A stretch of DNA of 30,776 nucleotides from an uncultured Propionivibrio sp. (lineage in GTDB: Bacteria; Pseudomonadota; Gammaproteobacteria; Burkholderiales; Rhodocyclaceae). The DNA lies in assembly GCA_964484585.1 (NCBI GenBank), contig CAZAGR010000001.1, positions 1 to 30,776 on the forward strand. Direction: 5' to 3'. A program made the translations under genes and the position numbers. The notes below the pieces were generated by a model that ran no database searches, had not been told where the DNA came from, and saw only the letters and a program-made list of their open reading frames with translations. Positions 750 to 26,005 of this stretch are shown piece by piece; the first letter of the stretch is position 1; every line of letters begins with the position of its first letter.

Positions 750-767
750 ACACTGAAGGGCTCGCCC

Positions 768-1232: not shown

Positions 1233-1969
1233 TGCCCATATCCGCGACCCGTATGCGCCGTCGCACCTTGCTGCGCCTTTTGGGAGCCACCGGTTTTTGT
1301 GGCGCAGCAGGCATTTCCGGCCTGATTCGACAAGCGCTCGCCGATGGCGACAACCCGGTTGCCCGTGGCATGCACAAGGTCACCGGCGACGTAACGATCA
1401 ACGGGCGGCCGGCCACAAAAGGTAGCGTGCTGCAACCGGGCGACACGATAGCAACCGGAGTTGGGGCCCAAGGTATCTACGTCATCGGTCAGGATGCGTT
1501 TTTGCAGCGTGACAACTCCATCATTCAATTCGGCGCCGACCGCGCGGCCAATGTAATGCGTGTCATCACCGGCAAAATACTGTCGGTCTTTGGCAAAGGG
1601 CAACGTACCATCCAGGTGTCCACCGCTACGATCGGTATTCGCGGCACAGGATGCTACATTGAGGACGAACCTGCAGGCAAAGCGACACCAAAAGTCGGCG
1701 ATAGCGGAACGGCGATCACGACCTCACGCACCTATTTTTGCCTGTGCTACGGCAGTGTTGAACTGATCCCGAATGCTTCGCCCCAACAAAGGGAAATTTA
1801 CAGCACGACTCACCATGACCACCCGATTTACATCCATGATAATCCGATGATGCCTAAATCGATGGTTCCGGCGGCCGTTATGAACCACACAGACTTTGAG
1901 CTGACGCTTTTGGAAAGTATCGTCGGCCGCCCGCCACCGTTCGCCGGGATTTCCGATCGAGCTTACTGA
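1232..1969 (+). CDS. FecR-domain protein with twin-arginine (Tat) signal peptide
   Basis: N-terminus MRRRTLLRLLG...QALA; FecR-like motifs GDTIATG, VITGKILSVF and TATIGIRGT; C-terminal TYFCLCYG...HHDHP...NHTD. Confidence 0.8.
   Translation: MPISATRMRRRTLLRLLGATGFCGAAGISGLIRQALADGDNPVARGMHKVTGDVTINGRPATKGSVLQPGDTIATGVGAQGIYVIGQDAFLQRDNSIIQFGADRAANVMRVITGKILSVFGKGQRTIQVSTATIGIRGTGCYIEDEPAGKATPKVGDSGTAITTSRTYFCLCYGSVELIPNASPQQREIYSTTHHDHPIYIHDNPMMPKSMVPAAVMNHTDFELTLLESIVGRPPPFAGISDRAY
1690..1714 (-). repeat. 25-bp dispersed motif, copy A (CGCCGTTCCGCTATCGCCGACTTTT on the minus strand)
   Basis: The plus strand reads aaaagtcggcgatagcggaacggcg. It lies inside the FecR-like CDS and encodes (P)KVGDSGTA. 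Confidence 0.9.
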
Positions 1970-1973
1970 GGAT

Positions 1974-2013
1974 AAAAAAAGCCGTTCCGGTTTCCCGGAA
2001 CGGCCTTTTGTTT
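1974..2013. terminator. bidirectional rho-independent terminator
   Basis: Perfect 10-bp stem GCCGTTCCGG-TTTC-CCGGAACGGC (1981-2004), with an A7 tract on the left and a T-rich tract on the right, between convergent genes. Confidence 0.9.
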
Positions 2014-2029
2014 CAACAGCTCGACTCGA

Positions 2030-2683
2030 TTAGCGGCCAAGTGAGTCGCGAACTTTGGTTTCCAGATTCTTGGAGAGTTCGGTAACGCGGTCTACAAGCT
2101 TCTTGAACGCATCGCTTTTCGGAAAGCCCAAGCGATCCAACGCCTGCTCGACCTGCGTGTCAAACGTCTTGCCAAATCGATCGATGTTCTTGTCGACCGC
2201 ACCGGCAGCAACATTGATGCTCTTCTTGAGGCGATTGGCATTGCTATCGATAGCTACGCGGCCTTGCTTTTCCATCGTGGCACCGGCTTTCACCAAGGCT
2301 TCAAAAGCTTTCTCGCCCTGCGTACCGGCGGAAGTGCTGGCTTTAGCCAAGGCACCTAGGCCGGCCAACCACACAGCGCGCTGCGAATCGATCAGCTTCA
2401 GTGAGGCATCACGCGTCATATTGACGGCAGCGCTCGCGCCTTTGCGGCTCTGTGCGGTCACTTTCTTCAGGGCGACAGTCGATTTGCTACCCACCTTGGC
2501 AGATTTTGCCTTGGCCTTCGCGCTAGCAACAGTCTTGACAACTTTGGCCTTGACGGCAGCCGCCTTAGGGACCGCAACCTTAGGGACCGCAACTTTGGGA
2601 GCTGCAACTTTCGGTGCAGCGGCCTTGGCGGCCGGCTTTGCAGCAGAAACAGTTTTCTTCGTGGTGGTTGTTGAGGTAGCCAT
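2030..2683 (-). CDS. PHA granule-associated phasin, PhaF/PhaI (poly_gran) family, with N-terminal Lys/Ala/Pro-rich region
   Basis: VWLAGLGALAK...FEALVKAG and FDTQVEQALDRLGFP...L..RVTELS are characteristic of PhaF/PhaI. The N-terminus has AAKP/KVAAP/KVAVP repeats. Confidence 0.85.
   Translation of the reverse strand: MATSTTTTKKTVSAAKPAAKAAAPKVAAPKVAVPKVAVPKAAAVKAKVVKTVASAKAKAKSAKVGSKSTVALKKVTAQSRKGASAAVNMTRDASLKLIDSQRAVWLAGLGALAKASTSAGTQGEKAFEALVKAGATMEKQGRVAIDSNANRLKKSINVAAGAVDKNIDRFGKTFDTQVEQALDRLGFPKSDAFKKLVDRVTELSKNLETKVRDSLGR
2564..2623. repeat. 15-bp coding tandem repeat (2 perfect + 2 degenerate units)
   Basis: cttagggaccgcaac at 2564 and 2579, then tttgggagctgcaac and tttcggtgcagcggc. 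It encodes the KxAxP pentapeptides of the phasin. Confidence 0.85.
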
Positions 2684-2818
2684 GGTAATTCTCCAGTTTC
2701 TCGATTAAAAAATTGAATTCAGGTTTTTCACCGGTCATTAAGTTGCTGGATTTCCAGTGTGTGGAACGCAGTATCGCAACAAGTATCTAGAGCGTTCAAC
2801 CTAACCGTCACGACTGGC

Positions 2819-4621
2819 TTAGGTCGCCCAATCAACCTCTGCCGGTGGCGTCACCTTCAGCACTTCCTCAACGGTTGTCAAGCCGGCTGCGACTTTTCGT
2901 GCACCGGCGATTCGCAAAGGCTTCATGCCATCGCGAATGCCTTGCTCGCGCAGCTTTGCCAAATCGGCACGCGACGCGACCAGACGCTTGATGTCGGTCG
3001 TCATATGCATGATTTCGTAAATTCCGATTCGCCCCATGAAGCCAGTCATGCGACATTCAAGGCACCCGACCGGACGATAAATCTGCTGCGGCAGGTTTGA
3101 CTTCCACGGCGCCACCAAGCCTGTCCAAGCCAGTTCGTCTTCCTCCCGCAAGCCGCCGGGTTGCTTGCAATGCGGACACAAGGTCCTTACCAAACGCTGC
3201 GCCATCACGCCGACAACGGTAGCCGAAAGCAGATAAGGCGGCACGCCCAAATCGATCAGTCGTGTCATTGCGGACGGCGCATCATTGGTGTGCAAAGTTG
3301 ACAGCACCAGATGACCGGTCAAGGCCGCCTGAATCGCCATTTCGGCAGTCTCCAGGTCACGAATTTCGCCCACCATGATGATGTCCGGATCCTGCCGCAT
3401 CAATGAACGGATTCCGGCCGCAAAGGTCACACCGAGGTCAGGCTGCACCTGCACCTGGTTGAATGACGATTCAACCATTTCAATCGGATCTTCCAGAGTG
3501 CAAACGTTCACCTCCGGTGTCGCCAGGGTCTTTAACGTGGAATACAGGGTGACCGTTTTTCCGCTGCCTGTCGGTCCGGTGACCAGGATGATCCCATTGG
3601 GCTGCGCCGACATTTTTGACCAGGCCACCGACTCGTCCGGATCAAAACCAAGTTCCGAAAAATCACGCACCAGCACATCCGGATCAAAAATCCGCATCAC
3701 CAGTTTTTCACCAAACGCGGTTGGCAAAGTCGAAAGTCGCAACTCCACTTCCGTGCCATCGGGCATACGAGTCTTGATGCGCCCGTCTTGCGGTCGGCGT
3801 TTCTCGACCACGTCCATGCGACCCAAAATTTTGATCCGGCTGGTCATGGCATTCAGAACAGACATCGGAATCTGATAAACCTGATGCAACACGCCGTCGA
3901 TGCGAAATCGCACCTGTCCCATGTTGCGCCTCGGCTCGACATGAATATCGGACGCGCGCTGATCGAACGCGTATTGCCACAGCCAATCCACAATGCGGAT
4001 GATGTGCTGGTCATTGGCATCGAAATTCTTATTGGTTTTACCGAGCTCGACAAGCTGCTCGAAATTCGATGCCCCGCCGGCAACGTCGCCCTTACCCATC
4101 GCGCCTTTGACCGACTTCGCCAGGTTATAAAACTCGACCTGGAAGCGTGCAATATCGGCCGGACTGGCAACAACGCGGCGAATCTCCTTCTTCAAAATGG
4201 GCGCCATTTCGGCTTCCCAGCATCGTTGCCAAGGCTCCGCTGTGGCGATGACCACCTCAGTTAACTTCACTTCCACCGGCAGAATGCGAAAACGTGTTGC
4301 GTACGTGCTGCTCATCACTTCGGTGATGGCCGCGAAATTTACTTTCAGAGGATCAATATGCAGATAAGGCAACCCGCTCCATGTGGCGAGCCATTGGGTC
4401 AAGCTGTCCAGATCCAGGATCCGGTGCGGCGGCTTGAACGACTTCCAGTGCTGCTCGGATATGGCGACCAGCGGATGCGCATCGCCGCGGAAATAACGCC
4501 GCTCCTGCTTGAAGGAATCGGCAACGGCCGGATCGACCAGACCGTCGGCCACCAGCGCATCGGTGACCTCGGGCAAGGTAAGGCGATGTTCGTTCGAAGT
4601 TTCGGTCGGTACAGCAGCCAT
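2819..4621 (-). CDS. GspE/PulE/PilB-family secretion/pilus assembly ATPase
   Basis: ASDIHVEP, Walker A GPTGSGKT, Asp box LEDPIE, RQDPDIIMVGEIRD, His box GHLVLSTLHTND and a CxxC...CxxC zinc site. Confidence 0.95.
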   Translation of the reverse strand: MAAVPTETSNEHRLTLPEVTDALVADGLVDPAVADSFKQERRYFRGDAHPLVAISEQHWKSFKPPHRILDLDSLTQWLATWSGLPYLHIDPLKVNFAAITEVMSSTYATRFRILPVEVKLTEVVIATAEPWQRCWEAEMAPILKKEIRRVVASPADIARFQVEFYNLAKSVKGAMGKGDVAGGASNFEQLVELGKTNKNFDANDQHIIRIVDWLWQYAFDQRASDIHVEPRRNMGQVRFRIDGVLHQVYQIPMSVLNAMTSRIKILGRMDVVEKRRPQDGRIKTRMPDGTEVELRLSTLPTAFGEKLVMRIFDPDVLVRDFSELGFDPDESVAWSKMSAQPNGIILVTGPTGSGKTVTLYSTLKTLATPEVNVCTLEDPIEMVESSFNQVQVQPDLGVTFAAGIRSLMRQDPDIIMVGEIRDLETAEMAIQAALTGHLVLSTLHTNDAPSAMTRLIDLGVPPYLLSATVVGVMAQRLVRTLCPHCKQPGGLREEDELAWTGLVAPWKSNLPQQIYRPVGCLECRMTGFMGRIGIYEIMHMTTDIKRLVASRADLAKLREQGIRDGMKPLRIAGARKVAAGLTTVEEVLKVTPPAEVDWAT

Positions 4622-4629
4622 GGCAAAGA

Positions 4630-4654
4630 AAAAGTCGGCGCTAGCGGTACGGCG
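4630..4654 (-). repeat. 25-bp dispersed motif, copy B (CGCCGTACCGCTAGCGCCGACTTTT on the minus strand)
   Basis: The plus strand reads aaaagtcggcgctagcggtacggcg. It is intergenic, 8 nt from the ATPase start codon. Confidence 0.9.
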
Positions 4655-4712
4655 ACTATAACTCAGGATGCGGCTATCATGCGCCCAGTCGAACCCGCTT
4701 TAAGCGAAAATT

Positions 4713-5201
4713 GTGATGGACCCTAAAAATCCTCGCCAGCCCGGCCAAGCCCGCCAGATACGCCTGCTCCTGCTTGCAAGCCTGTGCGCGTTCCCATATC
4801 TGGCAATGGCACAATCCGCAACCGAAACTGAAGGATGCGCCCTGGCACGCGATCCCGTGCGCTGCCTTGCGCGTACAGAAGCAATCGCCACCTGCGCAGA
4901 CCTTCACGGCGAAAAGAAGCATGACTGCCTCCTTGTGCGCCTGCCACCCCCCGACTGCGGTGCCGCGCCGGACTCGCGACGCTGCCAGCTTGAACAGGAT
5001 GCACGAGAGGCCTGCAAGGGTCGCGAAGCGCAGGCTCTGCGCGATTGCCTGCGCGACCAGGGCATCGAGGCGCCGAAGAAATCAAAGTCGAAGTCGACCG
5101 CGAAGTCGAAGTCGACCGCGAAGTCAAAGGCGACGTCAAAAAAGAAGCCTGCGGCCAAAAAAAGCAAACCTGCCTATACCGCGGCGCCGAAGCAAAAATA
5201 A
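4713..5201 (+). CDS. secreted Cys-repeat protein with Lys-rich C-terminal tail
   Basis: Signal-peptide-like RLLLLASLCAFPYLAMA; two units of C-x8-C-x9-C-x10-C; KSKSTA repeats. No family recognised. Confidence 0.7.
   Translation: MMDPKNPRQPGQARQIRLLLLASLCAFPYLAMAQSATETEGCALARDPVRCLARTEAIATCADLHGEKKHDCLLVRLPPPDCGAAPDSRRCQLEQDAREACKGREAQALRDCLRDQGIEAPKKSKSKSTAKSKSTAKSKATSKKKPAAKKSKPAYTAAPKQK
5085..5138 (+). repeat. 18-bp coding tandem repeat (KSKSTA x2 + one degenerate unit)
   Basis: aagtcgaagtcgaccgcg at 5085 and 5103, then aagtcaaaggcgacgtca. Confidence 0.85.
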
Positions 5202-5211
5202 CGTGCGCTCT

Positions 5212-5252
5212 GTAAATAAAAATCGCGACGAAGCCTAGACGTCGTCGCGATT
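5212..5252 (-). terminator. probable rho-independent terminator of htpG
   Basis: 11-bp perfect stem AATCGCGACGA / TCGTCGCGATT (5221-5231, 5242-5252). It is followed on the minus strand by TTTATTTA and lies 22 nt past the htpG stop. Confidence 0.7.
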
Positions 5253-5274
5253 CGCGCAGTGCTGAGAGTTCGAA

Positions 5275-7233
5275 TTACTGGGCGTTCGGCGTGGTGCCGC
5301 CCCCCATTTCCAGCATCAACTGATTCATCCGCTTCACAAAGGTCGCCGGGTCATCAAGCTGCCCGCCTTCGGCCAAAAGAGCCTGATCGAACAACACCGC
5401 CGCCCAATCATCGAAACGCTTGTCTTCATATTTCAAGCGCAAAACGACCGGATGGCGCGGGTTGATTTCCAGAATCGGTTTCGACACCGGAGCGCTCTGT
5501 CCCGCGGCCTTGAGGATACGGGCAAGATTTCCCGAGACGTCATGCTCGTCTGCGACCAGACAGGCAGGCGAATCGGTCAGACGATGGGTCACCCGTACCT
5601 CCTTGACACGCTCGGTCAGCGAAGCTGCAATCTTGTCCGTCAGTTCCTTGAAGTCACCTGCGTCTTTCTCCTGCTCCTTTTTCTCAGCTTCATCTTCCAG
5701 TTTGCCCAAGTCCAGTCCGCCCTTGGCGACAGAAATCAATGATTTGCCGTCAAACTCGGACAGGTTTGAAACCACCCACTCATCGACGCGATCCGTGAGC
5801 AGGAGGACCTCGATGCCCTTTTTGCGGAACACCTCAAGGTGCGGGCTGTTCTTCGCCGCATTGAATGTCTCGGCCGTCACGAAATAGATTTTTTCCTGTT
5901 CCGGTTTCATTCTCGCGATGTAGTCGGCCAGCGAAACACTCTCTTCGGTTGTATCAAGGTGGGTCGAGGCAAATCGCAACAAGCCGGCGATTTTCTCTTT
6001 ATTGGCAAAATCTTCGCCGATGCCTTCTTTCAGCACACGGCCGAACTCGCCCCAGAATTTGCTGTACTTCTCCTTATCGGCCGCCTCGTCACTCTCGGCG
6101 AGGTCAGACAGCATGCCGAGCACCTTTTTCGAGCAGCCATTGCGAATCGACTCGATGTCCTTCGATTCCTGCAATATTTCACGCGACACGTTGAGTGGCA
6201 AATCGGCCGAATCGACAACCCCGCGTACGAAACGAAGGTACGTCGGCATCAATTGCTCGGCATCGTCCATGATAAAAACGCGACGCACATACAGTTTGAC
6301 GCCATGTCGCGCATTGCGATCCCACATGTCGAACGGAGCTCGGGCTGGAATGTAAAGCAGCTGGGTGTATTCGGTCTTGCCTTCAACACGGGCATGGGTC
6401 CACGTCAGCGGGTCCTCAAAATCATGGCCGACGTGCTTGTAGAACTCTTTGTATTGCTCCTCGGTGATGTCGTTCTTGCTGCGCGCCCACAAAGCCGACG
6501 CCTGATTGACCGTCTCGTCTTCGTCGGTCGTCACTTGTGCGCTCTTCTCCTTGTCCCACTCTTCCTTCTTCATCACGATCGGCTGCACAATATGATCGGA
6601 ATACTTGCGGATGATCGAACGTAGCTTGTATCCGGCCAGCAAGTCGTCCTGACCTTCCTCACGCAGGTGAAGCGTGATTTCGGTACCACGAGTCGCCTTA
6701 GCGGCCATTTCAATGGTGAATTCGCCGGCGCCCTCCGATTCCCAAAGCACCCCCTGATCGGCCGCCAGACCGGCGCGACGGGTCAGCACGGTGACGCGAT
6801 CGGCGACGATAAAGGACGAATAAAAACCGACGCCAAACTGGCCGATCAGGCTGGCATCCTTTTTCTGATCGCCGGACAGTTGAGTAAAGAACTCACGCGT
6901 ACCCGACTTGGCGATCGTGCCCAGATTAGCGATCACCTCTTCACGACTCATGCCGACACCGTTATCCGAAATGCTCAAGGTTCGAGCATCTTTGTCAAAG
7001 CTCACCCGAATCTTGAAATCCGAGTCACCTTCAAACAGCGCGTCATTGTGTAACGCCTCAAAGCGCAGCTTGTCACAGGCGTCCGAGGCATTGGAAATAA
7101 GTTCACGAAGGAATATCTCGCGATTGGAATACAGCGAGTGAATCATCAGTTGCAGAAGTTGCTTGACCTCGGTCTGAAAGCCAAGGGTTTCACGGTTGCC
7201 GCTGGTTGCGGCGGAGGGAGTGGCGGTGGTCAT
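5275..7233 (-). CDS. htpG: molecular chaperone HtpG (Hsp90)
   Basis: [67 protein letters not shown] and ILEINPRHP. Confidence 0.99.
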
Positions 7234-7283
7234 GTGGTTTCCTTCACGCAGTCAAAGATAGGTAAAAAGCACAGCATGCCGCG

Positions 7284-7311
7284 ATCTGGGGGCAAGTTTC
7301 AGGTTTTCAAG
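7284..7311 (-). promoter_or_regulatory. sigma32 (RpoH) heat-shock promoter of htpG
   Basis: The minus strand reads CTTGAAA-acctgaaacttg-CCCCCAGAT, matching the established RpoH consensus CTTGAAA-N13-14-CCCCATNT, about 50 nt upstream of the htpG ATG. Confidence 0.85.
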
Positions 7312-7333
7312 ACCAAAATAAAACGCTTGTAGC

Positions 7334-7358
7334 AAAAGTCGGCGCTAGCGTGACGGCG
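7334..7358 (-). repeat. 25-bp dispersed motif, copy C (CGCCGTCACGCTAGCGCCGACTTTT on the minus strand)
   Basis: The plus strand reads aaaagtcggcgctagcgtgacggcg. It lies in the htpG/kef divergent intergenic region. Confidence 0.9.
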
Positions 7359-7370
7359 CAACGTATTACC

Positions 7371-9170
7371 ATGGCGCCTATGCCGCCACTCTCCCAAGCT
7401 GTCGTCTTGCTCGCCGCCGCGGTTGTTGCGGTTCCGCTGCTCAAACAGTTCGGCTTGGCCTCCGTGATGGGCTTTCTCGTCGCCGGCGTAACAATCGGGC
7501 CTTGGGGCCTGAGCCTTATCGACCAACCCGACGTGATCCTGCACACCACCGAGTTCGGTGTCGTGCTGTTGCTGTTCATCATCGGACTGGAACTCCAGCC
7601 AACCCGCCTGTGGGTTCTGCGCCGTGCCGTATTCGGACTCGGCGGAGCCCAGGTCGCCCTGACGACGGTCAGCGTGGCAATAATTGCGTGGCTGCTTGGC
7701 TTGCCGCCGCTGGCCGCCGTTCTCGCCGGCTTGGCCTTGTCCATGTCGTCGACTGCATTTGTGCTGCAGATGCTGGCTGAAAAGAAACAGCTCACGACCC
7801 GCTATGGACGTGACGGATTTGCGGTCCTGCTGTTCCAGGATCTTGCAGTCATTCCCCTGCTGGCCATTTTTCCCCTGCTTTCTCCCATGGCGGCGACGGC
7901 CGATCGGCCACCGGCCTGGGTCTCACTCACCGTCTTACTTGCAGTGGTGCTGGGCGGGCGGCCGCTCTTGCGTTTTCTGCTACGTCGGGTTGCCGGCACG
8001 GACAGCCATGAACTGCTGGTAATGGCGACACTCCTGATCGTCATGGCAATGGCGTGGAGCATGGAGGCAGCGGGCTTGAGCATGTCGCTCGGCGCATTTC
8101 TGGCCGGCGTATTGCTGGCCGATTCCGAGTATCGACATGAACTCGAAGCCAATATCGAACCGTTCAAAGGCGTACTGCTCGGACTGTTTTTTGTCGCTGT
8201 CGGCATGTCTGCCAATCTCGGCTTGGTGGTGGAGCGACCGCTGTTGATATTCGGGCTCGCCATCGGGCTAATGGCCGTCAAGGCCACTGTGCTTCTTGGG
8301 CTTGGTCGATTTACAGGCATGAACGCTTGCAGCGCGCGCCGCTTTGCCATCTACCTGTCACAAGGCGGCGAATTCGCCTTTGTCCTGCTGGCATTGGCTG
8401 CCGGGCAACAACTGATGGACGCGGCTACGGCAGATCTGCTGGCCATGGTGGTAACCCTGTCGATGGCTCTGACGCCCGTTCTGCTGGGCGCACACGAACG
8501 CTGGCTGGCTCCGCTCGAGAACCGCGGGGTGCAGAGGCCATTCGATGAAATCAAGACTGAGGATCATCGCGTCATCATTGCCGGCTTTGGCCGCTTCGGG
8601 CAAATCATCGCGCGCGTGTTGCGAATGCGCAAGATCGGCGTCACGGTGCTGGAATCCAATTCAGAACAGGTCGACTTCGTCCGTCGATTCGGCAATCGCA
8701 TCCATTACGGCGACGCCTCGCGGCTCGATCTTCTGCGCGCCGCCGGCGCAGAGAAAGCCGAAGTATTTGTTCTCGCGATCGACGACATTGAGAGTTCCTT
8801 GAAAACGGCGGCGGTGGTGCGCAAACATTTTCCGCACCTGAAAATTTACGCGCGTGCACGAAATCGCTTTCACTACTACCGCCTTCGCGATCTGGGCATC
8901 CAACTGATCACGCGTGAAACCTTCGCCGCCAGCGCCGAACTCGCCGGCGACGTTCTGGAGGGGCTGGGTATTTCTTTCACCTCCGCCAAGCGCAGTATCG
9001 GATCGTTTCGCGCCTACGATGAGGCCATGCTGGAAAGGCAATATGCGGTCAATCAAGATGAAGCCAAACTGATCCAGACTTCGCGCGATGCAGCGCTCGA
9101 ACTCGAGGAGTTATTCGAGGCGGACAATGCCAGCGCGGATGCGGACGTTGACGAACATACGCGGACGTAG
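7371..9170 (+). CDS. KefB/KefC-family glutathione-gated K+ efflux protein (CPA2 antiporter + KTN/RCK domain)
   Basis: EFGVVLLLFIIGLEL, LLFQDLAVIP, LSQGGEFAFV, and a KTN domain IIAGFGRFGQ...YGDASRLDLL...HLKIYARARNR. I prefer the ATG at 7371 (or 7380) to the GTG at 7350, which lies inside motif copy C. KefB and KefC cannot be told apart by eye. Confidence 0.93.
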   Translation: MAPMPPLSQAVVLLAAAVVAVPLLKQFGLASVMGFLVAGVTIGPWGLSLIDQPDVILHTTEFGVVLLLFIIGLELQPTRLWVLRRAVFGLGGAQVALTTVSVAIIAWLLGLPPLAAVLAGLALSMSSTAFVLQMLAEKKQLTTRYGRDGFAVLLFQDLAVIPLLAIFPLLSPMAATADRPPAWVSLTVLLAVVLGGRPLLRFLLRRVAGTDSHELLVMATLLIVMAMAWSMEAAGLSMSLGAFLAGVLLADSEYRHELEANIEPFKGVLLGLFFVAVGMSANLGLVVERPLLIFGLAIGLMAVKATVLLGLGRFTGMNACSARRFAIYLSQGGEFAFVLLALAAGQQLMDAATADLLAMVVTLSMALTPVLLGAHERWLAPLENRGVQRPFDEIKTEDHRVIIAGFGRFGQIIARVLRMRKIGVTVLESNSEQVDFVRRFGNRIHYGDASRLDLLRAAGAEKAEVFVLAIDDIESSLKTAAVVRKHFPHLKIYARARNRFHYYRLRDLGIQLITRETFAASAELAGDVLEGLGISFTSAKRSIGSFRAYDEAMLERQYAVNQDEAKLIQTSRDAALELEELFEADNASADADVDEHTRT

Positions 9171-9243
9171 CGATACTCCCGATCATCTTGTGAATGTCGG
9201 CTTGGCCCCCAAATATCACCCGACTACCGCATGGAAATAATGT

Positions 9244-9863
9244 CCGCCAACAGCCCACCCGCTTATATCCGGCGACACGGGCACTCAAGGCGAAGGCAAA
9301 ACCCGGATTGAACTCAATACGGACCGCGGCGTCTATGAACAAAACAATGTCCGCGCTCACGCACGACGTCTGCCGATATACCTGCCAACAGCGGAGCGGG
9401 CGACGTCTCACTGCTCGCCGAGTGGCGTTTTTGTGAAAAAGACGGGATGAGCTGGGGCATCAATCCGCAACTGAATTTGCCGACCGGGGACGACAACAGG
9501 GGCTTGGGAAATGGCAAAGCCAGCGCAGGTGTTCATGGGCTGGTGACTTACAGCGCGGACAGATGGACGCTGACTGGCGATCTCGGTACAGCCCGCAATA
9601 GAAACGTTCCGGGCGCGCGGACGTCCTTATGGAATGCGTCTGCGGCGGCGATGTTCACGGTCAGCGATGCGCTCAAACTGGTACTCGATACTGGCGTCAA
9701 TCGGAACTCCGATAGCGCCGCAGACACCAACCCCGCCTTTGCCTTGGTCGGAGCGGTCTGGACGCTCAACCCGTCAATTGACCTGGATCTGGGTTACCAG
9801 CACGGACTCAATAACGCGGAAGTAAAACACAGCATCGGTGCAGGTATAACCCTGCATTTCTAG
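9244..9863 (+). pseudogene. degraded outer-membrane beta-barrel transporter gene (phenol MetA-degradation/SphA-like family)
   Basis: One frame gives AHPLISGDTGTQGEGKTRIELNTD (from 9253), preceded by an in-frame TAA at 9238. A different frame, from about 9360, gives SGAGDVSLLAEWRFCEKDG...LPTGDDNRGLG...DLDLGYQHGL...GITLHF. This implies a frameshift near 9355-9365 and no intact signal peptide. Confidence 0.75.
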
Positions 9864-9882
9864 GCAACGGTTGAAGGCTGGG

Positions 9883-11508
9883 TCAGGCGACGCTGAACCG
9901 TTCCGTCAGCTCATGCAGAGACGCAGCGAGCTCGTTCAACTGACGAGTCGCGTCGGCGATCTCATTGGCCGCCTCGCTATTGTTCGACGACATCTGCGAA
10001 ATGCGTTCAACATTAGTGGCAATTTCGGTGCTGGCAAGTCGCTGCTCCTGCAAGGCCAGGGAAATCTGACCGAGTGCTGCAACCACCTGATCGGTGCCCG
10101 AACGCACTGCCACCATCGAGCTGCCGGCATTATCCGCCAGCTTCACGCCCGCGATCGCCCGCTCTTGTCCTGCTTCGACACCAACAACAGCCTGCTGAGT
10201 GCTGGCCTGGATATCGTGGATGACCGACGTAATTTCATTGGTCGAACTGGCCGTGCGCTCGGCCAATTTGCGCACTTCATCAGCCACGACCGCAAAACCG
10301 CGCCCTTGCTCGCCAGCGCGGGCGGCCTCAATTGCCGCGTTAAGCGCCAGCAGATTGGTTTGGTCAGCGATATCCTTGATGATGCCAATTATGCTGTTGA
10401 TGCGCTGGCTTTGTTCGCCCAGCCCGACGACGACGCCGCGCACGTGTCCAACAGCCTCGGCGATTTGACGCATTTCCGCAGCCGCACTTTGTACCGACTC
10501 CTGGCTCTGCACCGTCAGCCCGCCAGCCGCCTGCGCGGCCCGGTCGGAATCCTTGGCACTATCGGCCATGTTACCGATGCCGACCGTCATTTCCTCCACT
10601 GCCGCGGCAGTGCTGGCGGTAGCTTCATTTTGACTATGAGAACCTTGCGCAACTTGTCCGGCCAGGCCGGACAGTCTGCCGGCAGAGGTCGCCACCGCCT
10701 CCGCGTTTTGCTTGATCTCGCGGATGATCGTCGTCAATGCAATTCGCATAGCGTCGATATTGGCGAGCAAACTGCCGCGATCGCCCGGCGCCAACTCGAT
10801 GCGGGTCCGCAGGTCACCGCCGGCAATTTTCTGCGCCACACTCGCGGCATAGGCGGGCTCGCCGCCCAAGGTGGCGAGCAGGTCGCGAACGATCCAGCCA
10901 ACGATCACGACCAGTGCAACCACGGCGAGGATGCCGATCAAGATATTGTTCCGCACGGCGTCGGCGCGGGCCGAGTCAAACTCTACGTCGGCGGCGGCTA
11001 ATTGTTGCTTGGTTTCCTTGGCGGCCTTGTTCAGGCTTTCCGAAATCAGCGCGGCCAGTTTGTCGATTTTGTCATCCGCAGCGCGGATCGCCGGCCAGTC
11101 GGGTGGATCAGCCTTGGCCAGAGGCAGCGTCTCCGTTTCGTAGAGCTGAATCATCGCCATAACGGCAGTCTTACCCTCTTTCAGCGCAGCAATTTCGCCA
11201 GCTGTGTCAGCATGCTTGGTCACATTTTCAAGCAGGGCCAATTCGTCGGCCTTGGCTTTCGCCCAGTCTTTCTCCGACTCCGGAAAGTTCTGGTTGATGA
11301 TCGTATCGGCAACGATCTGATACAGGCGCGCGCCTATGTCGGCCGCCAGCTGGGCATTTGCCGCCTCGTCGGCCGTTTGCGCGCCTCGATCCTGCAAAGC
11401 ACCCATGCGCGACATGGCCAGAGTTGAATTGACGGCAATCGTGGCACTGGCCAACACGGCAATCACCAAAACCAGATACAGCTTCGCTCGAACGGTCAGT
11501 TGTTTCAT
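9883..11508 (-). CDS. methyl-accepting chemotaxis protein (TM - periplasmic helical domain - TM - HAMP - signalling domain)
   Basis: [40 protein letters not shown] signature and two hydrophobic TM segments. Confidence 0.97.
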
Positions 11509-11757
11509 GATTTCCCTTGTGGATTGACGCTTGCTTAAACGGCCGGTCAGGACCGCAGTCTGCCATAAAAAATGTACGCTCGCAGCATCACCATTAAGGC
11601 AATATGGTTATGACGCCACAACATTAGCGATATGCACAAATTCAACCAGTCTCTAACATTTACAGCAGCCCAATACTCCGGCCCCAATTTAGATAAAAGC
11701 AACGCCGAAAAAATTGCATGTGCTAATCTGGCTTCACCGCTTTACAAGGCGAACCGA

Positions 11758-13017
11758 ATGAACCCGTTAACTCCCCTGCGCGTCAGCCTGTCCATCGGTT
11801 TAATGTTGGCGACTGTGCTCGCTCATGCCGCCCATGGGCAAAACGACCACGCTCGTACCACCTTCAGCGGCTTCGGCACTCTGGGGTATGTGCACGACGA
11901 TTCCAGCCACCACGCCTTCACGCGAGACCTCGCACAATCCATTGATGTAAGCTCGAACTCGACATGGAAAGCCGACACCCGACTGGGGTTGCAGCTTGTC
12001 CATACGGTTGGGCCAACCCTCGAGTTTGTTGGGCAACTGGTCATTCGCGACCAAGCGCAAGCAAGTCTCGACCGCTCCATCGAATGGGCCTTTGTCGGGT
12101 ACCGCCCGACCTCCGAGTTGAATCTTCGCGCCGGGCGCGTCGGCGTCGATGTTTTTCTGATGTCGGATTCACGGCACATCGGCTACAGCTACCCGTGGGT
12201 GCGGCCGCCCATGGAGGCCTATGCCTGGATGCCACTCTACTACCTCGAGGGCGGTGATATCACCTGGCAAAAGGATGGTCTTGATGCTACCTGGCGCGTC
12301 AAGGCGCAAGCAGGAAAAGGCCGCATGCGCATTCCGTTCTTTAACCGCATCTTGAACTTCGAGACCAAGGCTTTTTGGGACGCCACGGTCAGCCGCGAAA
12401 CCGGCCCACTGACGCTGAAGGCGGGCTACGCCGGTTTTCGCGCTGCCAAGCAAGGACCTATAGAAGAATTGCTGGCCGGACTTGATTCCGTTGCGGGAGC
12501 CGGACTCGGACCCTTCAGCGATGAAGCGGCACAACTGCGCGGCGACGTCTCCTTCAAGGACGCACGCATCGGCTATTCGTCCATCGGCGCAGCCTACGAC
12601 GACGGCGTCTGGCTACTGCAAAGCGAGTTAAGTAATGTCACCGGCAGCACGGCCATCGTCCCGCGAGGGCAACGCGCCTACGTCAGCGTCGGTCGTCGTT
12701 TTGGCGCATGGACACCTTACGTCCTGTTAGCCACCAGCCGCTCGCCGGGGGCCAGGACCGCAGTCAATGACTGGAGCCCTCTTGGCCCGGCGGCGGCCTT
12801 GCAGGCAGGCGCGATCGGTGCCATCAACGCCACGCGCATTGCACAGAAAACCGTCGCGCTCGGCGTGCGTTGGGATTTCCACAATAGTGCCGCGCTCAAA
12901 GTGCAGTGGGATTCAGTCCGTGGCGAATCGAATGGGTGGGCACTCTGGTCGAAAGATCGCGAATTCGAGGCGGCCAGAGTAAACCTGCTGTCGACCACGC
13001 TGGACTTTTCGTTTTGA
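11758..13017 (+). CDS. putative outer-membrane porin / beta-barrel protein
   Basis: Signal peptide ending AHA; FSGFGTLG, LDRSIEWAFVGY, LRAGR.G.D.FLMSDSRHIGYSYPWVRPP.E.Y, ALGVRWDF...AALKVQWD; C-terminal LDFSF beta-signal. The start is placed at MNPL rather than at 11632. Confidence 0.8.
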   Translation: MNPLTPLRVSLSIGLMLATVLAHAAHGQNDHARTTFSGFGTLGYVHDDSSHHAFTRDLAQSIDVSSNSTWKADTRLGLQLVHTVGPTLEFVGQLVIRDQAQASLDRSIEWAFVGYRPTSELNLRAGRVGVDVFLMSDSRHIGYSYPWVRPPMEAYAWMPLYYLEGGDITWQKDGLDATWRVKAQAGKGRMRIPFFNRILNFETKAFWDATVSRETGPLTLKAGYAGFRAAKQGPIEELLAGLDSVAGAGLGPFSDEAAQLRGDVSFKDARIGYSSIGAAYDDGVWLLQSELSNVTGSTAIVPRGQRAYVSVGRRFGAWTPYVLLATSRSPGARTAVNDWSPLGPAAALQAGAIGAINATRIAQKTVALGVRWDFHNSAALKVQWDSVRGESNGWALWSKDREFEAARVNLLSTTLDFSF

Positions 13018-13028
13018 AACTGGCGAAC

Positions 13029-13466
13029 ATGCTCATGCGTAGAAAAATAAGGCTGATTGCACTAGTCGCCGTCGGTCTCGCGTCCGGGTTGGCCCGTGCT
13101 GACCTGACCGTGATTGTCAATGCCAACAGCCCGATCAAGGCATTGACTGCAAAACAGGTGGCCGAGTTTTATCTGGGTCGCAACCGGTCATTTGATCATG
13201 GAGAATACGCTCTGGTGATCGACCAAGGTCGTGACACTCCTCAGCGCGAACGGTTTTTCAAGGCTGTCACGGGCATGGCCATGCCGCAAGTGAATGCCTA
13301 TTGGTCACGTCTTAAATTCACCGGCCAGATCCAGCCGCCGCAACAGATTGATACCGAATCCGTGGTCATCGACATGGTGTCGCGCAACCCGACGGCCATT
13401 GCCTACGTGACAGGCAATGTGGTTGGCAATCCGCAAGTCAAGTCCGTGCTTTTCATCCGCGAATAG
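13029..13466 (+). CDS. small periplasmic protein of the phosphate-ABC-SBP-like single-domain family
   Basis: Signal peptide ending ARA; VIVNANSP...YLG...YWSRLKFTG..QPP...V..NPTAIAYV pattern; 145 aa; 11 nt downstream of the porin gene. Confidence 0.75.
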   Translation: MLMRRKIRLIALVAVGLASGLARADLTVIVNANSPIKALTAKQVAEFYLGRNRSFDHGEYALVIDQGRDTPQRERFFKAVTGMAMPQVNAYWSRLKFTGQIQPPQQIDTESVVIDMVSRNPTAIAYVTGNVVGNPQVKSVLFIRE

Positions 13467-13500
13467 AACCGGCAATCAAGTGGCAATACACGAAAACAAG

Positions 13501-15123
13501 ATGACCTCAAGCCTGAAGCACGGATTGGTGCTTTGGGTCTCGATCGGATCTCTGATATTCGCCGCACTTGCCGGCGCTGCCCTGTTTGCGTTTGAATTTC
13601 AAAGCCAACGCAGCGAGGCGAAGGAACAGCAGAAACAATTGGCAGCTACGGTCAAATCCTCTGCAGCAGTTGCGGCCTTTGTGGCCAATGAAGAAATTGC
13701 TCGCGATGTCGTCAAAGGACTGTTGTCAAATTCACTGGTCGCCGCAGCCGCAATCGAGAATGAAGCGGGAAAGGTAATCTACTCGAACCACAAGGTAACC
13801 GGCGCCGAATTACGCAGGGAGGCCGCGACCAGATATCCGCTGCCATCGCCCATCAGTGTAGACGACATCAGCGGACTCTTATTGATTGAACAGGATGATG
13901 CCTACATTGATGCCCGGGCAATGCAAATCGCGTTCTGGCAATCGGTAATACTTGTTGTTCAAATCGCGATATCCGGGATCTTGCTGATCTTGCTGTTCGA
14001 CCACACCGTGGGACGTCCGCTCGGAGCATTGGCGCGAATGGTTGCGCAGGCGATTCCCGGCAGCGGCACCCGGCTGGTGGCGCCACCCGGCCAGACCGAT
14101 ACGGAAATTGGTTTGCTGGTTCTGTGCACCAATGCACTGCTTGGAACAGCCGAGAGCGCGATCGACGAGGAGCGCGAGCTGCGCGCCAAAGTTGAAAAGA
14201 TGGAAGCGTACTACCGGCGAATTTTCGAGACGACCAATGTCGGCATCATGGTGCTCAACGAACATGGAAACTTGATCAACAGCAATCCCGTACTGCTGTC
14301 GCGCATCGTCGGCATTCACTTTGACGGCGGTCACGTCAAGGAGAGCAACAAGTTCATCGAAACGATATTTTGCGAGCCCGACGTCGTCTGGTCCTTGATC
14401 AACGAAGCCGCAAAAACACACCGCTCGGTTTCTGCCGACTGTCAGTTGCGTACCGCAAACGACAGTGAAAAGTGGGCGCACTGCATCATCTCTGTGGTAC
14501 TCGGACGTAAGGGTCAGATTGAATTGATCGAAGGCGTGCTCTACGATGTCACCGACCGTCGGATCGAAGAAGACAAAATGCGCCGGCAGGCCGACCACGA
14601 TGCTCTGACGGGCCTGCGCAACCGGCGCGGCATGGAATCATTTCTCGATCGCAGCCTGCGTCATGCCGCCGAAAATGAGCAGTGCGTGGGTGTGTTGCTG
14701 ATTGACCTGGATGGCTTCAAAGCAGTGAATGACACCCAGGGTCACGACGCCGGCGATCAGGTGCTCAAAGGCGTTGCCGAGCGATTGCTGGGACGAATCC
14801 GGCGCTCTTCGGATGCCGTGGCACGTCAAGGTGGCGACGAGTTCGTGATTATTGCAAACAACTGCGGGAACGACACGAAGGCCGTCGAGGAGATCGCGAC
14901 GGACGTGGTCAGCTTGATGCGGGAACCCTTCCAGCTCGACGATGGCAGCTTCGCCCAGATCGGCGCCAGCATCGGCATTGCGCGTTACCCGCTAAATGGC
15001 CACACCCGCACCACGGTGATCGCCGCCGCCGACGCAGCGATGTACGTCGCCAAGAAGTCGGGCAAGAACCGCCATTCGATAGCGCCCACGGATGATCATC
15101 CGCCGGATAGCGACTTGGTCTAG
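13501..15123 (+). CDS. membrane-bound diguanylate cyclase (TM - periplasmic - TM - HAMP-like - PAS - GGDEF)
   Basis: DALTGLRNR, LLIDLDGFKAVNDTQGHDAGD, intact RSSD..ARQGGDEF (RxxD I-site plus GGDEF) and SIGIA. The start could instead be the GTG at 13480. Confidence 0.93.
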   Translation: MTSSLKHGLVLWVSIGSLIFAALAGAALFAFEFQSQRSEAKEQQKQLAATVKSSAAVAAFVANEEIARDVVKGLLSNSLVAAAAIENEAGKVIYSNHKVTGAELRREAATRYPLPSPISVDDISGLLLIEQDDAYIDARAMQIAFWQSVILVVQIAISGILLILLFDHTVGRPLGALARMVAQAIPGSGTRLVAPPGQTDTEIGLLVLCTNALLGTAESAIDEERELRAKVEKMEAYYRRIFETTNVGIMVLNEHGNLINSNPVLLSRIVGIHFDGGHVKESNKFIETIFCEPDVVWSLINEAAKTHRSVSADCQLRTANDSEKWAHCIISVVLGRKGQIELIEGVLYDVTDRRIEEDKMRRQADHDALTGLRNRRGMESFLDRSLRHAAENEQCVGVLLIDLDGFKAVNDTQGHDAGDQVLKGVAERLLGRIRRSSDAVARQGGDEFVIIANNCGNDTKAVEEIATDVVSLMREPFQLDDGSFAQIGASIGIARYPLNGHTRTTVIAAADAAMYVAKKSGKNRHSIAPTDDHPPDSDLV

Positions 15124-15168
15124 GTTTACCGCAATCCAATGCGCCGACATTGCCTGCCTGGCGACAAG

Positions 15169-17268
15169 TCAAGAACGAGTCAAGCGGCGGTAGGTTTCAG
15201 CCAAGCGCAACGGAAGTTTTGTGACATCGGCAAGCACAGAATAGCTGGACTCGCCATAGAGCCGCTTGAGGTAATCCGCACCGTGGCGATCAATCGTCAC
15301 GCCATAGCTGCGAATTCCCGCTTGAGTCGCCTCTTGCAAGGCACGCCGCGTATCCTCGATGCCGTAATGTCCGCGGTATTCGTCACCATGGTCGTCGGGC
15401 CGGCCATCGGTCAGCGTTACCAGCAACGTGTGCCGCGCCGGTTGTGCGGATAGCAATCTGGACACATGGCGGATCGCCACGCCCATACGCGTGTAATCCT
15501 TTGCCTCGATACCTGCAATGCGCTCGCGCACCTCGTCGCTATAGACTTCATCAAATGACTTGATGCGATAAATCTCGCAACGCGTGCGTGTCCAGCCGGA
15601 GAATCCGTAAATGGCGTAGCGGTCGTCCAAGGCCTCAAAGGCTTCGCACAGCATCACCAACGCCTCGCGCTCGGCATCATTGACCCAACCCTTGGTCGAG
15701 CCGCTCATATCAACCAGGAACATGACCGCCAGCGACCGCTCGGAGCGCACGCGCCGGCGAAAGACATTCGACTCCGATTCGGCACCTGCCCTCAGATCGG
15801 CGAACGCATCAACCAGGGTATCGAGATCGATCTCTTCGCCTTCCGGCTGACGCCGATGAACCTTGTCTTCACCTCGAAGGGCTTCGAAACGGCGGCGAAT
15901 CTGGCGAATCAATGGCGCATGGCGTTGCCGCACCTCGGTGACATAGTCGCCATTACCACCACTACCACCATTGCCGCCACTGATTTCACATGCATAGACG
16001 TGGCACCAATCGCGCCGGTAGGCCTTGCGATGGTAATCCCACTCGTCGTAACGGTAATCGGGGTCGCCCTCGCTCGCGGCCACGGTCGGTTCGTCAGCTG
16101 ACGCGACCGGCTGCCAAACGCCTTCACCCGCCGGCTGCAAAAGCTCCAAGGGCAATTCGCCTAAATCCTGTTTCAACGACTCGGCTGCCGCGTGCGCATC
16201 CGGTGGAAGATTCAACAGCATTTCTGCCAAGTCTGAGGCTTGAGGCGCAATATCCTCTGGGCTCGACTGCGGCAACTGGGCGGTATTGCCTCGCATTCGA
16301 TCGCTGCTCCGCAGCACGTGCAGCGCGCGTCTGACTCGTTCGACATTGCGCTCCACGCGGACATCACGCGCCCGCATCGCAGCCTCTGGATCGAGCATGC
16401 CGGAATGGACCAGATTCGGCACCGCATTGCCCTGGTCGCGCAAACTATCGAGCAAGCGCAGACTGTCTCCAACGTCGCTAACCGCGGTTAATTGATCAAC
16501 CGCGACCGCCAGTTCAATCGGCCACGGCCCACGCACAGCGGCGATTTCCGCCGCCAACCCGGGCAGTTCCTTGCCAATACAGGCTTCAAGACGTACGGCT
16601 TCCAATGCCACCAACCAACGCAAGGCTTGCTGGCGATCCGCCCAGAGACCGACGTGCGCCTCGAGATCGACTGAAAATGTGCCGAAGTGCGTCTGCGCCC
16701 ACAACAGGACTGCCGTCGCCTTATACAGGCCGCGGTTGGCGTTCGTGTCCGCCAGAGCATTGAGACTGGCCGGGAGAAAAATCGTTTCAGTATCAGTCCA
16801 GGCGCGCTCGCCGACAGCCACAGTCAGCGCACGACTGTTCAGCTGACCACCCAAAGCCTGCAGCAGGCGCGACAAACGCGCCTCAACATCGGCGAGGTGA
16901 GCTACGCCCTGACCCTGGTTAGCCGAAAAAAAGCCCTCAATATCCTCCAGCACCTTTGACGCCGAAACGGAGCCAGAGCGATCAAACTCATCGAGGCCGT
17001 GGCGAACCCACGCGGCAAACTCATCCTCGCCCTGCGGTGCCAACACTGTTGCAAACACTTGAGGCGCCAGCATACAAATTCGGTGCGCAAAATCCGCGTC
17101 CGTTATCGCGGCCACCCGCGCCCAATGCAACACTGCATCCTGTTGCGTCCGCGAAAGCGCTTCCAGCCCGCTGGCCGCAAGATTCAACGCCCGATGCGAT
17201 GGCGAGGCAAACAGCAGTTCATCAAGCCGAACCATCAGTTCTTCGGCGAAAAATTTTCTCTCTGTCAC
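15169..17268 (-). CDS. CbbO/NorD-family von Willebrand factor A domain protein
   Basis: YDEWDY, GEEIDLD, MIDAS FLVDMSGST, YAIYGFSG, YTRMGVAIRH, LTDGRPDD and YGIEDTR. The GTG at 17268 forms a GTGA overlap with the upstream stop, so it is preferred over 17301. Confidence 0.88.
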   Translation of the reverse strand: MTERKFFAEELMVRLDELLFASPSHRALNLAASGLEALSRTQQDAVLHWARVAAITDADFAHRICMLAPQVFATVLAPQGEDEFAAWVRHGLDEFDRSGSVSASKVLEDIEGFFSANQGQGVAHLADVEARLSRLLQALGGQLNSRALTVAVGERAWTDTETIFLPASLNALADTNANRGLYKATAVLLWAQTHFGTFSVDLEAHVGLWADRQQALRWLVALEAVRLEACIGKELPGLAAEIAAVRGPWPIELAVAVDQLTAVSDVGDSLRLLDSLRDQGNAVPNLVHSGMLDPEAAMRARDVRVERNVERVRRALHVLRSSDRMRGNTAQLPQSSPEDIAPQASDLAEMLLNLPPDAHAAAESLKQDLGELPLELLQPAGEGVWQPVASADEPTVAASEGDPDYRYDEWDYHRKAYRRDWCHVYACEISGGNGGSGGNGDYVTEVRQRHAPLIRQIRRRFEALRGEDKVHRRQPEGEEIDLDTLVDAFADLRAGAESESNVFRRRVRSERSLAVMFLVDMSGSTKGWVNDAEREALVMLCEAFEALDDRYAIYGFSGWTRTRCEIYRIKSFDEVYSDEVRERIAGIEAKDYTRMGVAIRHVSRLLSAQPARHTLLVTLTDGRPDDHGDEYRGHYGIEDTRRALQEATQAGIRSYGVTIDRHGADYLKRLYGESSYSVLADVTKLPLRLAETYRRLTRS

Positions 17269-17756
17269 GATGTATCGCCGATTGTCAACGCCACGCGCCA
17301 CTGATCCAACTTGTCTTCAAAACGCATTCCGGCATGAGCCGGGCTGGTCGATGGGAGAGACATCGTTTCCAATCCCAGTGCAGTAAATTCACGCACTCTG
17401 CGTGCCGCAACACGCCCATTGAAGCAGACGCGCCGTAGCGCCGGCGCCGACTTTTTGAGTGTCGCAATATCGTTCGGGATGCTATTTCCAATGGCGCTAT
17501 CGAGGCTGCCGGCGCGCTCGCACGCGGCGTAACTATCCCAGATCGCCAACCGCGCCGCCCTCACCGCGACAAGGCGCTCCGCGTAGGACAATTCCGCCAA
17601 CGGTCGCCCGAGCACTGCGCCAAGAATGCGCCAGAACTGATTGCGCGGGTGCGCGTAGTACTGTTGTGCGGAAATCGATGCTACTGACGGAAACGAGCCG
17701 AGAATCAACACTCGCGCATTTTCGTCAAACACCGGCGGCAAGCCACTCAGCAACAT
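17265..17756 (-). CDS. uracil-DNA glycosylase superfamily protein, DNA-deoxyinosine (hypoxanthine) glycosylase type
   Basis: VLILGSFPS...QYYAHPRNQFW, WD...CER.GSLDS.I, FNG and LPSTSPAHA. Confidence 0.88.
   Translation of the reverse strand: MLLSGLPPVFDENARVLILGSFPSVASISAQQYYAHPRNQFWRILGAVLGRPLAELSYAERLVAVRAARLAIWDSYAACERAGSLDSAIGNSIPNDIATLKKSAPALRRVCFNGRVAARRVREFTALGLETMSLPSTSPAHAGMRFEDKLDQWRVALTIGDTS
17431..17455 (+). repeat. 25-bp dispersed motif, copy D (CGCCGTAGCGCCGGCGCCGACTTTT)
   Basis: Read directly from the sequence. It lies inside the glycosylase CDS and encodes KKSAPALRR on the minus strand. Confidence 0.88.
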
Positions 17757-19520: not shown

Positions 19521-19545
19521 CGCCGTCCCGCCATCGCCGACTTTT
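19521..19545 (+). repeat. 25-bp dispersed motif, copy E (CGCCGTCCCGCCATCGCCGACTTTT)
   Basis: Read directly from the sequence, in the divergent intergenic region between the FAD oxidase and the DUF2721-like gene. Confidence 0.9.
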
Positions 19546-25980: not shown

Positions 25981-26005
25981 CGCCGTCTCGCCGGCGCCGA
26001 CTTTT
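25981..26005 (+). repeat. 25-bp dispersed motif, copy F (CGCCGTCTCGCCGGCGCCGACTTTT)
   Basis: Read directly from the sequence; intergenic, 118 nt upstream of the RCC1-repeat gene start. Confidence 0.9.

Follow-up and report, generated by a model that had tools for sequence, protein, structure and literature searches.

A 25-bp motif shared by two unrelated genes of an uncultured Propionivibrio sp. is maintained as DNA across the Sterolibacteriaceae and may be an uptake sequence

Two unrelated genes in a stretch of DNA from an uncultured Propionivibrio sp. (Rhodocyclaceae; assembly GCA_964484585.1, contig CAZAGR010000001.1, positions 1 to 30,776; the whole 30,776-nt stretch that was analysed is called the window below) carry the same short motif. 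One of them encodes a FecR-like periplasmic protein and the other a DNA-deoxyinosine (hypoxanthine) glycosylase, which raises the question of how two such proteins came to tolerate one DNA sequence and what maintains it. An original prediction for this locus had held that the motif is read in different frames and gives different peptides in the two proteins, and this was confirmed from the coordinates and codons of both copies, here designated A (FecR-like gene) and D (glycosylase gene). Our analysis showed that copies A and D are typical representatives of a 25-bp motif found throughout the genome and the family and maintained as DNA independently of coding, that the coding copies originated in place, and that copies lie mostly between genes and inside genes only where the protein can carry the motif.

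Both copies are exact instances of the 25-nt motif AAAAGTCGGCG-NN-RGCG-NN-ACGGCG (written whole: AAAAGTCGGCGNNRGCGNNACGGCG), with motif position 1 falling on codon position 3 in copy A and on codon position 2 in copy D. The 11-mer core of the motif occurs six times in the 30.8-kb window, while 0.05 occurrences were expected and none of 100 shuffled versions reached six. The other four copies start at positions 4630, 7334, 19521 and 25981; three of them are intergenic, and the one at 7334 is either intergenic or overlaps a possible GTG start (Table 1). With about 90% of the window coding, finding at most two of six copies inside genes has a probability of about 0.001. The first three copies are on the forward strand and the last three on the reverse strand. 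The window has a GC content of 58%, and no part of it matched an Rfam family. Its genome also displays a motif flavour of its own, with A at position 14 in three of the six copies (vs. 4% of the family set) and AT at positions 12-13 in two of the six, which is rare elsewhere (window copies concerned: 1690, 4630 and 7334).

Exact matches were found in at least 120 genome-contig stretches, nearly all from Sulfuritalea, Sterolibacteriaceae or Rhodocyclales metagenome-assembled genomes (MAGs), the taxonomy of MAGs being taken as deposited. This exact-pattern scan covered one genome per species and required the AAAA dialect, as did the scan of viral sequences mentioned below, and all motif counts rest on contig stretches and loci. 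Sulfuritalea is assigned to the Sterolibacteriaceae by NCBI, and copies are also present in the cultured S. hydrogenivorans. In 465 kb of loci that had been fetched via two genes and were not selected for the motif, 62 matches with up to three mismatches were detected, compared to none in shuffled sequences, and the density was 0.15-0.32 per kb. The family consensus from 138 full copies is AAAAGTCGGCG-CT-GGCG-(G/A)N-ACGGCG. It is asymmetric, and the position weight matrix of these copies holds no information outside the 25 nt; the 25-mer is therefore self-contained and not the core of a larger element. Lineages vary at motif positions 1-4, leading to the dialects AAAAGT (the window, L210 and L211; L numbers are our locus handles), AAGAGT (four of four copies in L204 and most copies in L332) and GAAAGT (frequent in S. 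hydrogenivorans), which are consistent within a genome.

The motif is used in both orientations. Relative to GC skew, 84 instances were co-oriented with the G-rich strand and 71 opposed to it (P = 0.34; 155 instances at loci with measurable skew), neighbouring pairs had the same orientation in 61 cases and opposite orientations in 50, and inverted motif pairs were not seen. Within the window, the GC skew does not switch between the three forward and the three reverse copies. Inside open reading frames (ORFs) we found about 8 of 23 copies where genes had been called, and 51 of 181 by a two-sided test of GC content at third codon positions (GC3), an approximate classification restricted to loci of at least 60% GC; across methods, the fraction was about 28-35% overall. 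The coding copies use several frames and both strands, with K-V-G-A-G-G-T-A as the most frequent reading frame, and other copies follow stop codons or lie in divergent promoters. Two further ways of separating coding from intergenic copies, stop-to-stop ORFs with a GC3 threshold and a self-trained codon-usage score (150-nt flanks), were unsuited to the 58%-GC window and were replaced by these two. An internal hairpin or terminator, for which the arms C10-G14 and C21-G25 could pair, was likewise considered and rejected, as these pairs are broken in window copies (A at position 12 or 14) and only copy D was terminator-like.

The glycosylase was assigned with 175.5 bits to the TIGR04274 equivalog (cutoff 80). 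Copy D comprises the codons AAA AAG TCG GCG CCG GCG CTA CGG (KKSAPALR) directly before RVCFNG, and in the AlphaFold2 (AF2) model this segment covers the end of a helix, a turn and the start of a strand, with a predicted local distance difference test score (pLDDT) of about 90. Its length is the same in 32 of 32 close and 150 of 150 distant homologues, without any indel, which agrees with the earlier proposal that a segment of normal length had been altered by substitution. Distant glycosylases, including those of Lautropia and a Rhodospirillales MAG, are equal in length at this site and differ in peptide around a common loose xAPxL[RK] pattern; motif-free orthologues preserving both peptide and length, named in the original prediction as the sign of protein conservation, were not among them. 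The peptides SAPALRR or SALALRR were found in 84 of 117 close homologues and are restricted to the motif-bearing clade. Judging from these comparisons, the site was pre-adapted by its xAPxLRR segment and then converted by substitution.

Eight glycosylase orthologues, with about 65-75% protein identity to that of the window, read TCG GCG CC[G/C] or CTG, followed by GCG CTA CG[G/C] CG. The leucine within the motif is encoded by CTA in all eight, although this codon makes up 3.2% of Leu codons among 275,000 training codons. A single codon was used at four of four columns lying wholly on fixed motif positions, compared to 14 of 48 other invariant four- or six-fold columns (Fisher P = 0.011); the eight sequences have a common ancestry, yet synonymous sites next to the motif vary among them. 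Where the 3' end of the motif falls within an Arg codon, the third base of this codon varies freely (CGC, CGA, CGG), and the Pro-to-Leu variant (CCG to CTG) brings copy D nearer to the family consensus. The residue preceding the serine is Lys (AAG) in AAAAGT genomes and Glu (GAG) in AAGAGT genomes, with close homologues divided about half and half between xK-S and xE-S, so the Lys/Glu difference seems to follow the dialect of each genome, and the Arg of 'RES' is encoded by AGA, which accounts for 1% of Arg codons. Both codon and amino-acid choices in the glycosylase are now locked to the motif. Conservation at the DNA level, as had been suggested, was borne out by synonymous sites, rare codons and the use of two frames.

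With respect to the second host protein, a search for the FecR family (PF04773) gave no Pfam match even at E <= 10 and no NCBIfam match. Comparison of its AF2 model with the C-terminal domain of the FecR-family protein PupR (6OVK) and with 4M0H (E of about 3e-4, template modelling score 0.40-0.46) supports 'FecR-like' as a description of the predicted fold only. Copy A consists of the codons CCA AAA GTC GGC GAT AGC GGA ACG GCG (PKVGDSGTA) between YIEDEP and RTYFCLC and in the model occupies the tip of the beta-hairpin loop that joins strands 132-146 and 166-180 (pLDDT 63-74). The loop is 5 aa long in the most distant homologues and 9 aa in most (86 of 120), while a minority have 12 to 29 aa. 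The expectation that this copy sits in a segment that looks inserted is supported insofar as the loop is lineage-specific and of variable length. In the loop frame the family consensus reads KVGAGGTA, and relatives show KVGAGGTA, KVGADGTA, KVGVGGTA or KVSAGGTA. For the loop DNA of close relatives, P0009 (L335) was used in place of the closest ones, P0002, P0004 and P0005; the L335 sequence, AAAAGTCGGTGTTGGCGGGACGGCG, confirmed the motif.

The 9-aa loops (S. hydrogenivorans: GAT GAA GGC GCG GGC GCC ACG GCG) already carry the 3' 18 nt of the motif, GGCGNNGGCGNNACGGCG, and the loops of L164 and L169 have only 9 nt extra, giving AAATGTC or AAAGGGC. Loop residues flanking the motif are unrelated between relatives, and no clean 25-nt insertion was found in the FecR-like orthologues compared. 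These sequences indicate that the loop was built by small indels and substitutions, through which the motif accumulated at the tip of this surface hairpin. In a quick and crude neighbour-joining tree (about 160 residues), long motif-bearing loops were found in basal groups and in the clade of the window, and the 9-aa form in a large Sulfuritalea crown with a few nested long forms, so that the direction of change is uncertain. The original prediction had further opposed two modes of origin, substitution as the mark of an uptake sequence and insertion as that of a mobile element, and this part did not stand: the loop copy is not a clean unit, short loops hold the 3' 18 nt, and 9-nt indel intermediates exist. 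The dichotomy is also unsupported because coding copies of known uptake sequences coincide with alignment gaps as well, namely about 6% of them (H. influenzae, 9 of 140 copies; N. meningitidis, 5 of 91 copies; PMC2817400, Table 3). Regarding its genomic context, the FecR-like gene is the last member of a conserved cluster that also encodes an AAA ATPase and a VWA_CoxE protein (window 135-1969; L121:7522-10681; L337:2641-5429). Another AAA/VWA pair in the window consists of a CbbQ/NorQ-like ATPase (20090-20986) together with a VWA protein (15169-17301).

A real insertion event is present in these alignments, but as a separate module of about 24 nt that splits the motif. This conserved module, TATGCGTAGCGGTATCCC(N2-4)GGGA, lies between T6 and C7 of the motif at at least five unrelated loci (L181:1800-1850; L173, L104, L127, L129, L204/L207), contains a small TCCC/GGGA palindrome, and its centre (TAGCGGTA) keeps the spacing of the middle block of the motif. 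In the FecR loop of L181, compared to its close relative L170, it is a clean in-frame gain of 24 nt or eight residues (IMRSGIPG); the module is also present in Sulfurisoma, and a related insert in the FecR loop of L183 splits the motif after G11. Altogether, seven long-form sequences were detected among 494 right halves in 2.5 Mb. With regard to presence or absence of whole units, most orthologous motif sites are graded at equal length, while the separate module is clean (L181 vs. L170).

Table 1. Motif copies in the window, their host genes and the pilus gene next to copy B.
Feature	Positions	Strand	Description
Motif copy A (AAAAGTCGGCGATAGCGGAACGGCG)	1690..1714	+	Inside FecR-like gene, sense strand, frame K-V-G-D-S-G-T-A
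Motif copy B	4630..4654	+	Intergenic, 8 nt upstream of ATG of type IV pilus ATPase gene; site conserved across family
Motif copy C	7334..7358	+	About 100 nt upstream of htpG; intergenic or overlapping possible GTG start (7350) of Na+/H+ exchanger ORF
Motif copy D (AAAAGTCGGCGCCGGCGCTACGGCG)	17431..17455	-	Inside glycosylase gene, sense strand, frame (K)K-S-A-P-A-L-R-R
Motif copy E	19521..19545	-	Intergenic, between divergent FAD oxidase and DUF2721 genes
Motif copy F	25981..26005	-	Intergenic, between patatin-like gene (end 25853) and probable ATG (26125) of RCC1-repeat gene
FecR-like periplasmic protein	1232..1969	+	Twin-arginine (Tat)-type signal; no Pfam match; fold like PupR/FecR C-terminal domain
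Hypervariable loop hosting copy A	1664..1729	+	Residues D145-R166, 22 aa; from alignment, loop table and AF2
DNA-deoxyinosine (hypoxanthine) glycosylase	17265..17756	-	Uracil-DNA glycosylase superfamily; PF03167; TIGR04274; AF2 pLDDT 86.5
Type IV pilus assembly ATPase	2819..4621	-	NF053534 TfpB, 902.6 bits, cutoff 850; copy B in leader region

Outside the two proteins, some sites were followed across genomes. In the tfpB leader (window 4622-4680; L121:14227; L106:5009; L210:15408; L332:17835, and others), the motif separates a -10-like box (TATAGT/TATAAC) from the start codon in many genomes, and no Shine-Dalgarno sequence was visible at this leader; the copy may be linked to pilus expression or may simply be old. 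Upstream of htpG, the motif was found at a distance of 81-108 nt in four genomes (window 7334-7358; L204:7871; L210:1542; L211:7838), with differing upstream neighbours, and this suggests independent gains in the same spacer. At the site in a DUF1841 gene, matches in orthologues range from poor to 18-19 of 21 positions without any change in length, and intergenic orthologous sites showed improvement or decay in place. When orthologous pairs were pooled, identity was 0.77 at motif positions and 0.73-0.77 in the flanks, which are BLAST-selected conserved coding DNA in a sample dominated by the FecR site; this comparison did not discriminate between the two. L169 and L170 share 92.6% identity over 420 nt, but precisely at the motif-like DUF1841 site (L170:95-135) about 9-10 of 15 bases differ between them, and the two versions each match a different set of more distant relatives, so that the difference looks like a short recombination patch.

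In L337 (GC content of 54%), no motif with up to four mismatches was present in 9.6 kb. At the FecR loop (4683-5429), it retains the long form as PVGAGNTP with decayed synonymous sites, and its tfpB leader (about 8164-8230) holds a decayed relic of the motif; based on this one 9.6-kb locus, the lineage may have lost the system by which the motif is maintained. In viral contigs from IMG/VR, exact copies were found in at least 120 stretches. Among these contigs, L228 is a true phage fragment according to PHROGs (anti-repressor Ant, internal virion proteins, tail fibre) and carries two copies, at 744-768 (-) and 5701-5725 (+), both inside genes. Next to copy F, positions 25971-28799 of the window cover a large secreted-looking protein with at least 13 RCC1 repeats (PF25390/PF00415), for which ATG 26125, not TTG 25971, is the probable start.

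According to a 2025 survey, uptake sequences are known from two bacterial families only, the Neisseriaceae and the Pasteurellaceae, both host-associated, and about half of their copies lie in terminators (bioRxiv 10.1101/2025.10.24.684340). The DNA uptake sequence (DUS) of the former and the uptake signal sequence (USS) of the latter have densities of 0.8-0.9 per kb, and 34.5% of the DUS copies of N. meningitidis are inside genes, a share close to the 28-35% of our motif; USS spread by mutation and recombination, not by insertion, and coding USS occupy poorly conserved positions and have doubled the frequency of the encoded peptides (PMC2817400). In the searchable literature, the core sequence appeared in no relevant context, and no link of uptake sequences to Rhodocyclaceae, Sterolibacteriaceae or Sulfuritalea was found.

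Our motif resembles the DUS (10-12 nt, bound by the minor pilin ComP), which is betaproteobacterial as well, in its hundreds of near-perfect, lineage-specific copies in both orientations, in its dialects, and in having about one third of its copies in ORFs, in particular frames and with accommodation of codons and amino acids. It differs from the DUS in being 25 bp long and tripartite, in lacking the CTG core and the TGAA end of all DUS dialects, in its about 4-fold lower density, and in not being built into inverted-repeat terminators. Its reverse complement also contains the DUS hexamer GCCGTC, a likeness that serves as a lead only. With the USS (about 29 bp, made up of a 9-nt core and flanking tracts in phase) it shares the extended design of several blocks and the AAAGT start of the core (AAAGTGCGGT vs. 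AAAGTCGGCG here); unlike the USS, it is GC-rich throughout without AT tracts, belongs to a different bacterial class, and has about 30% of its copies in ORFs compared to 65% in H. influenzae. The cyanobacterial HIP1 (GCGATCGC) is another lineage-wide over-represented word in coding and non-coding DNA that is conserved at synonymous sites, but it is an 8-nt palindrome, while our motif has 25 nt and is asymmetric.

Several explanations compete for this pattern. That the intragenic matches merely reflect protein conservation or chance, with no signal at the DNA level, finds some backing in the loose xAPxL[RK]x[IV]xFNG of distant glycosylases (a Rhodospirillales homologue reads LAPRLRRVCFNG), so that the peptide is partly typical of the family. 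It is scarcely credible, being already contradicted by one 25-mer in two frames of unrelated proteins and at four non-coding sites where 0.05 occurrences were expected, by synonymous sites that all eight orthologues keep on rare codons, and by the confinement of SAPALRR to the motif-bearing clade. Very improbable, too, is a polar chromosome-processing signal oriented with replication, of the type of Chi or the FtsK-orienting polar sequences (KOPS). Such signals are over-represented chromosomal words tolerated in coding DNA as well, Chi in E. coli has a density similar to the about one per 5 kb of our motif, and the arrangement of three forward copies followed by three reverse ones in the window would suit them. 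However, Chi and KOPS are 8-mers skewed to the leading strand, whereas our motif far exceeds any known site of either kind with its 25 nt, its instances divide 84 to 71 relative to skew, and the skew of the window does not switch from one group of copies to the other. A mobile or duplicating element of small size, which either is the motif or wrote it by copying in units of 24-25 nt, also in frame, by insertion or gene conversion, would account for FecR-like loops that are 8 to 20 aa longer when the motif is present, for the clean in-frame module within the motif in L181 and its recurrence at T6/C7 of unrelated loci, for copies in both orientations upstream of htpG, and for the clustered patch difference between L169 and L170 at the motif-like site. 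Like repetitive extragenic palindromic sequences, bacterial interspersed mosaic elements (REP/BIME) and miniature inverted-repeat transposable elements (MITEs), the copies are short, interspersed and mostly intergenic, and the 24-nt module shows presence/absence polymorphism. Yet the motif has no palindrome, terminal inverted or other terminal repeats, target duplications or flanking conservation, genic copies are in frame and graded partial matches stand in place at orthologous sites of unchanged length, the glycosylase copy is free of indels in all homologues, the 3' 18 nt are present even in short FecR loops, with intermediates that differ by 9 and not 25 nt, and long forms are limited to just seven among the 494 right halves. 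We therefore consider this explanation quite unlikely.

The main rival is that the motif is a binding site of an abundant chromosomal DNA-binding protein, for instance one that organises the nucleoid, acts in global regulation or protects from a host nuclease, and that its copies are kept by selection for a local or collective cellular function rather than by an uptake bias. A long tripartite motif with fixed blocks and variable gaps of 2 nt looks like a protein footprint, and the strong enrichment between genes and at gene boundaries, the conserved positions between the -10-like box and the start codon of tfpB and 81-108 nt upstream of htpG, the occurrence of copies in a true phage contig, which would suit a protective or 'self' function in the cell, and the dialects, which fit co-evolution of protein and site, all agree with such a role. 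Nevertheless, regulatory or architectural sites are not usually conserved near-perfectly at 21 positions in hundreds of instances, copies stand at arbitrary positions with respect to genes and in either orientation, the rare codons forced on coding copies are hard to justify by a local function, and neither palindromy nor polarity with replication was found, so that we regard a binding site of this kind as unlikely.

The reading we prefer is that the motif is a DNA-level self tag which spreads by mutation and recombination and is most likely a DUS/USS-type uptake sequence of the Sterolibacteriaceae; we infer uptake here and give this reading about an even chance of being correct. The overall pattern matches uptake sequences because it is lineage-specific with dialects, orientation-independent and mostly intergenic, because coding copies are accommodated, and because some relatives hold only relics; the type IV pilus ATPase gene in the window was also counted in its support. 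Under this reading, a sequence-specific DNA-recognition step acting on any DNA of the lineage would give motif-bearing alleles a transmission advantage, the motif would spread by mutation and homologous recombination (molecular drive), and selection at the protein level would filter where copies persist. The recognition step would most likely be preferential uptake of motif-bearing DNA in type IV pilus-dependent natural transformation. Several observations weigh against an uptake sequence. With 25 bp and about 21 fixed positions, the motif exceeds DUS and USS cores in length, and it is 3- to 5-fold less dense. Terminator prediction called none of the non-coding window copies, with coding copy D as the only, weak, terminator-like match. 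The copies upstream of htpG occur in both orientations, two parallel and two antiparallel to the gene, and exact copies are found in a phage contig. A module of about 24 nt at a fixed point is not predicted by a pure model of mutation and drive, and many of these signatures would also be expected of any cellular DNA-binding protein whose numerous sites are under selection.

It is possible, if somewhat doubtful, that the Sterolibacteriaceae have a DNA uptake specificity of their own, with a 25-bp tripartite signal, dialects and an optional 49-bp long form, which dictates rare codons and residues in housekeeping proteins and would be the first outside the Neisseriaceae and Pasteurellaceae. The Sterolibacteriaceae are environmental, sulfur- and hydrogen-oxidising Betaproteobacteria. 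If true, such a third lineage, free-living and with a signal that is unrelated and far longer, would mean that self-preferential DNA uptake evolves repeatedly, and it would offer a new system for identifying the receptor, e.g., by comparing motif-bearing genomes with relic-only relatives such as L337. Irrespective of its function, the motif clearly illustrates how, in nature, a signal at the DNA level overrides codon usage and shapes protein sequence, and it can serve in practice to assign metagenomic contigs and prophages to this lineage.

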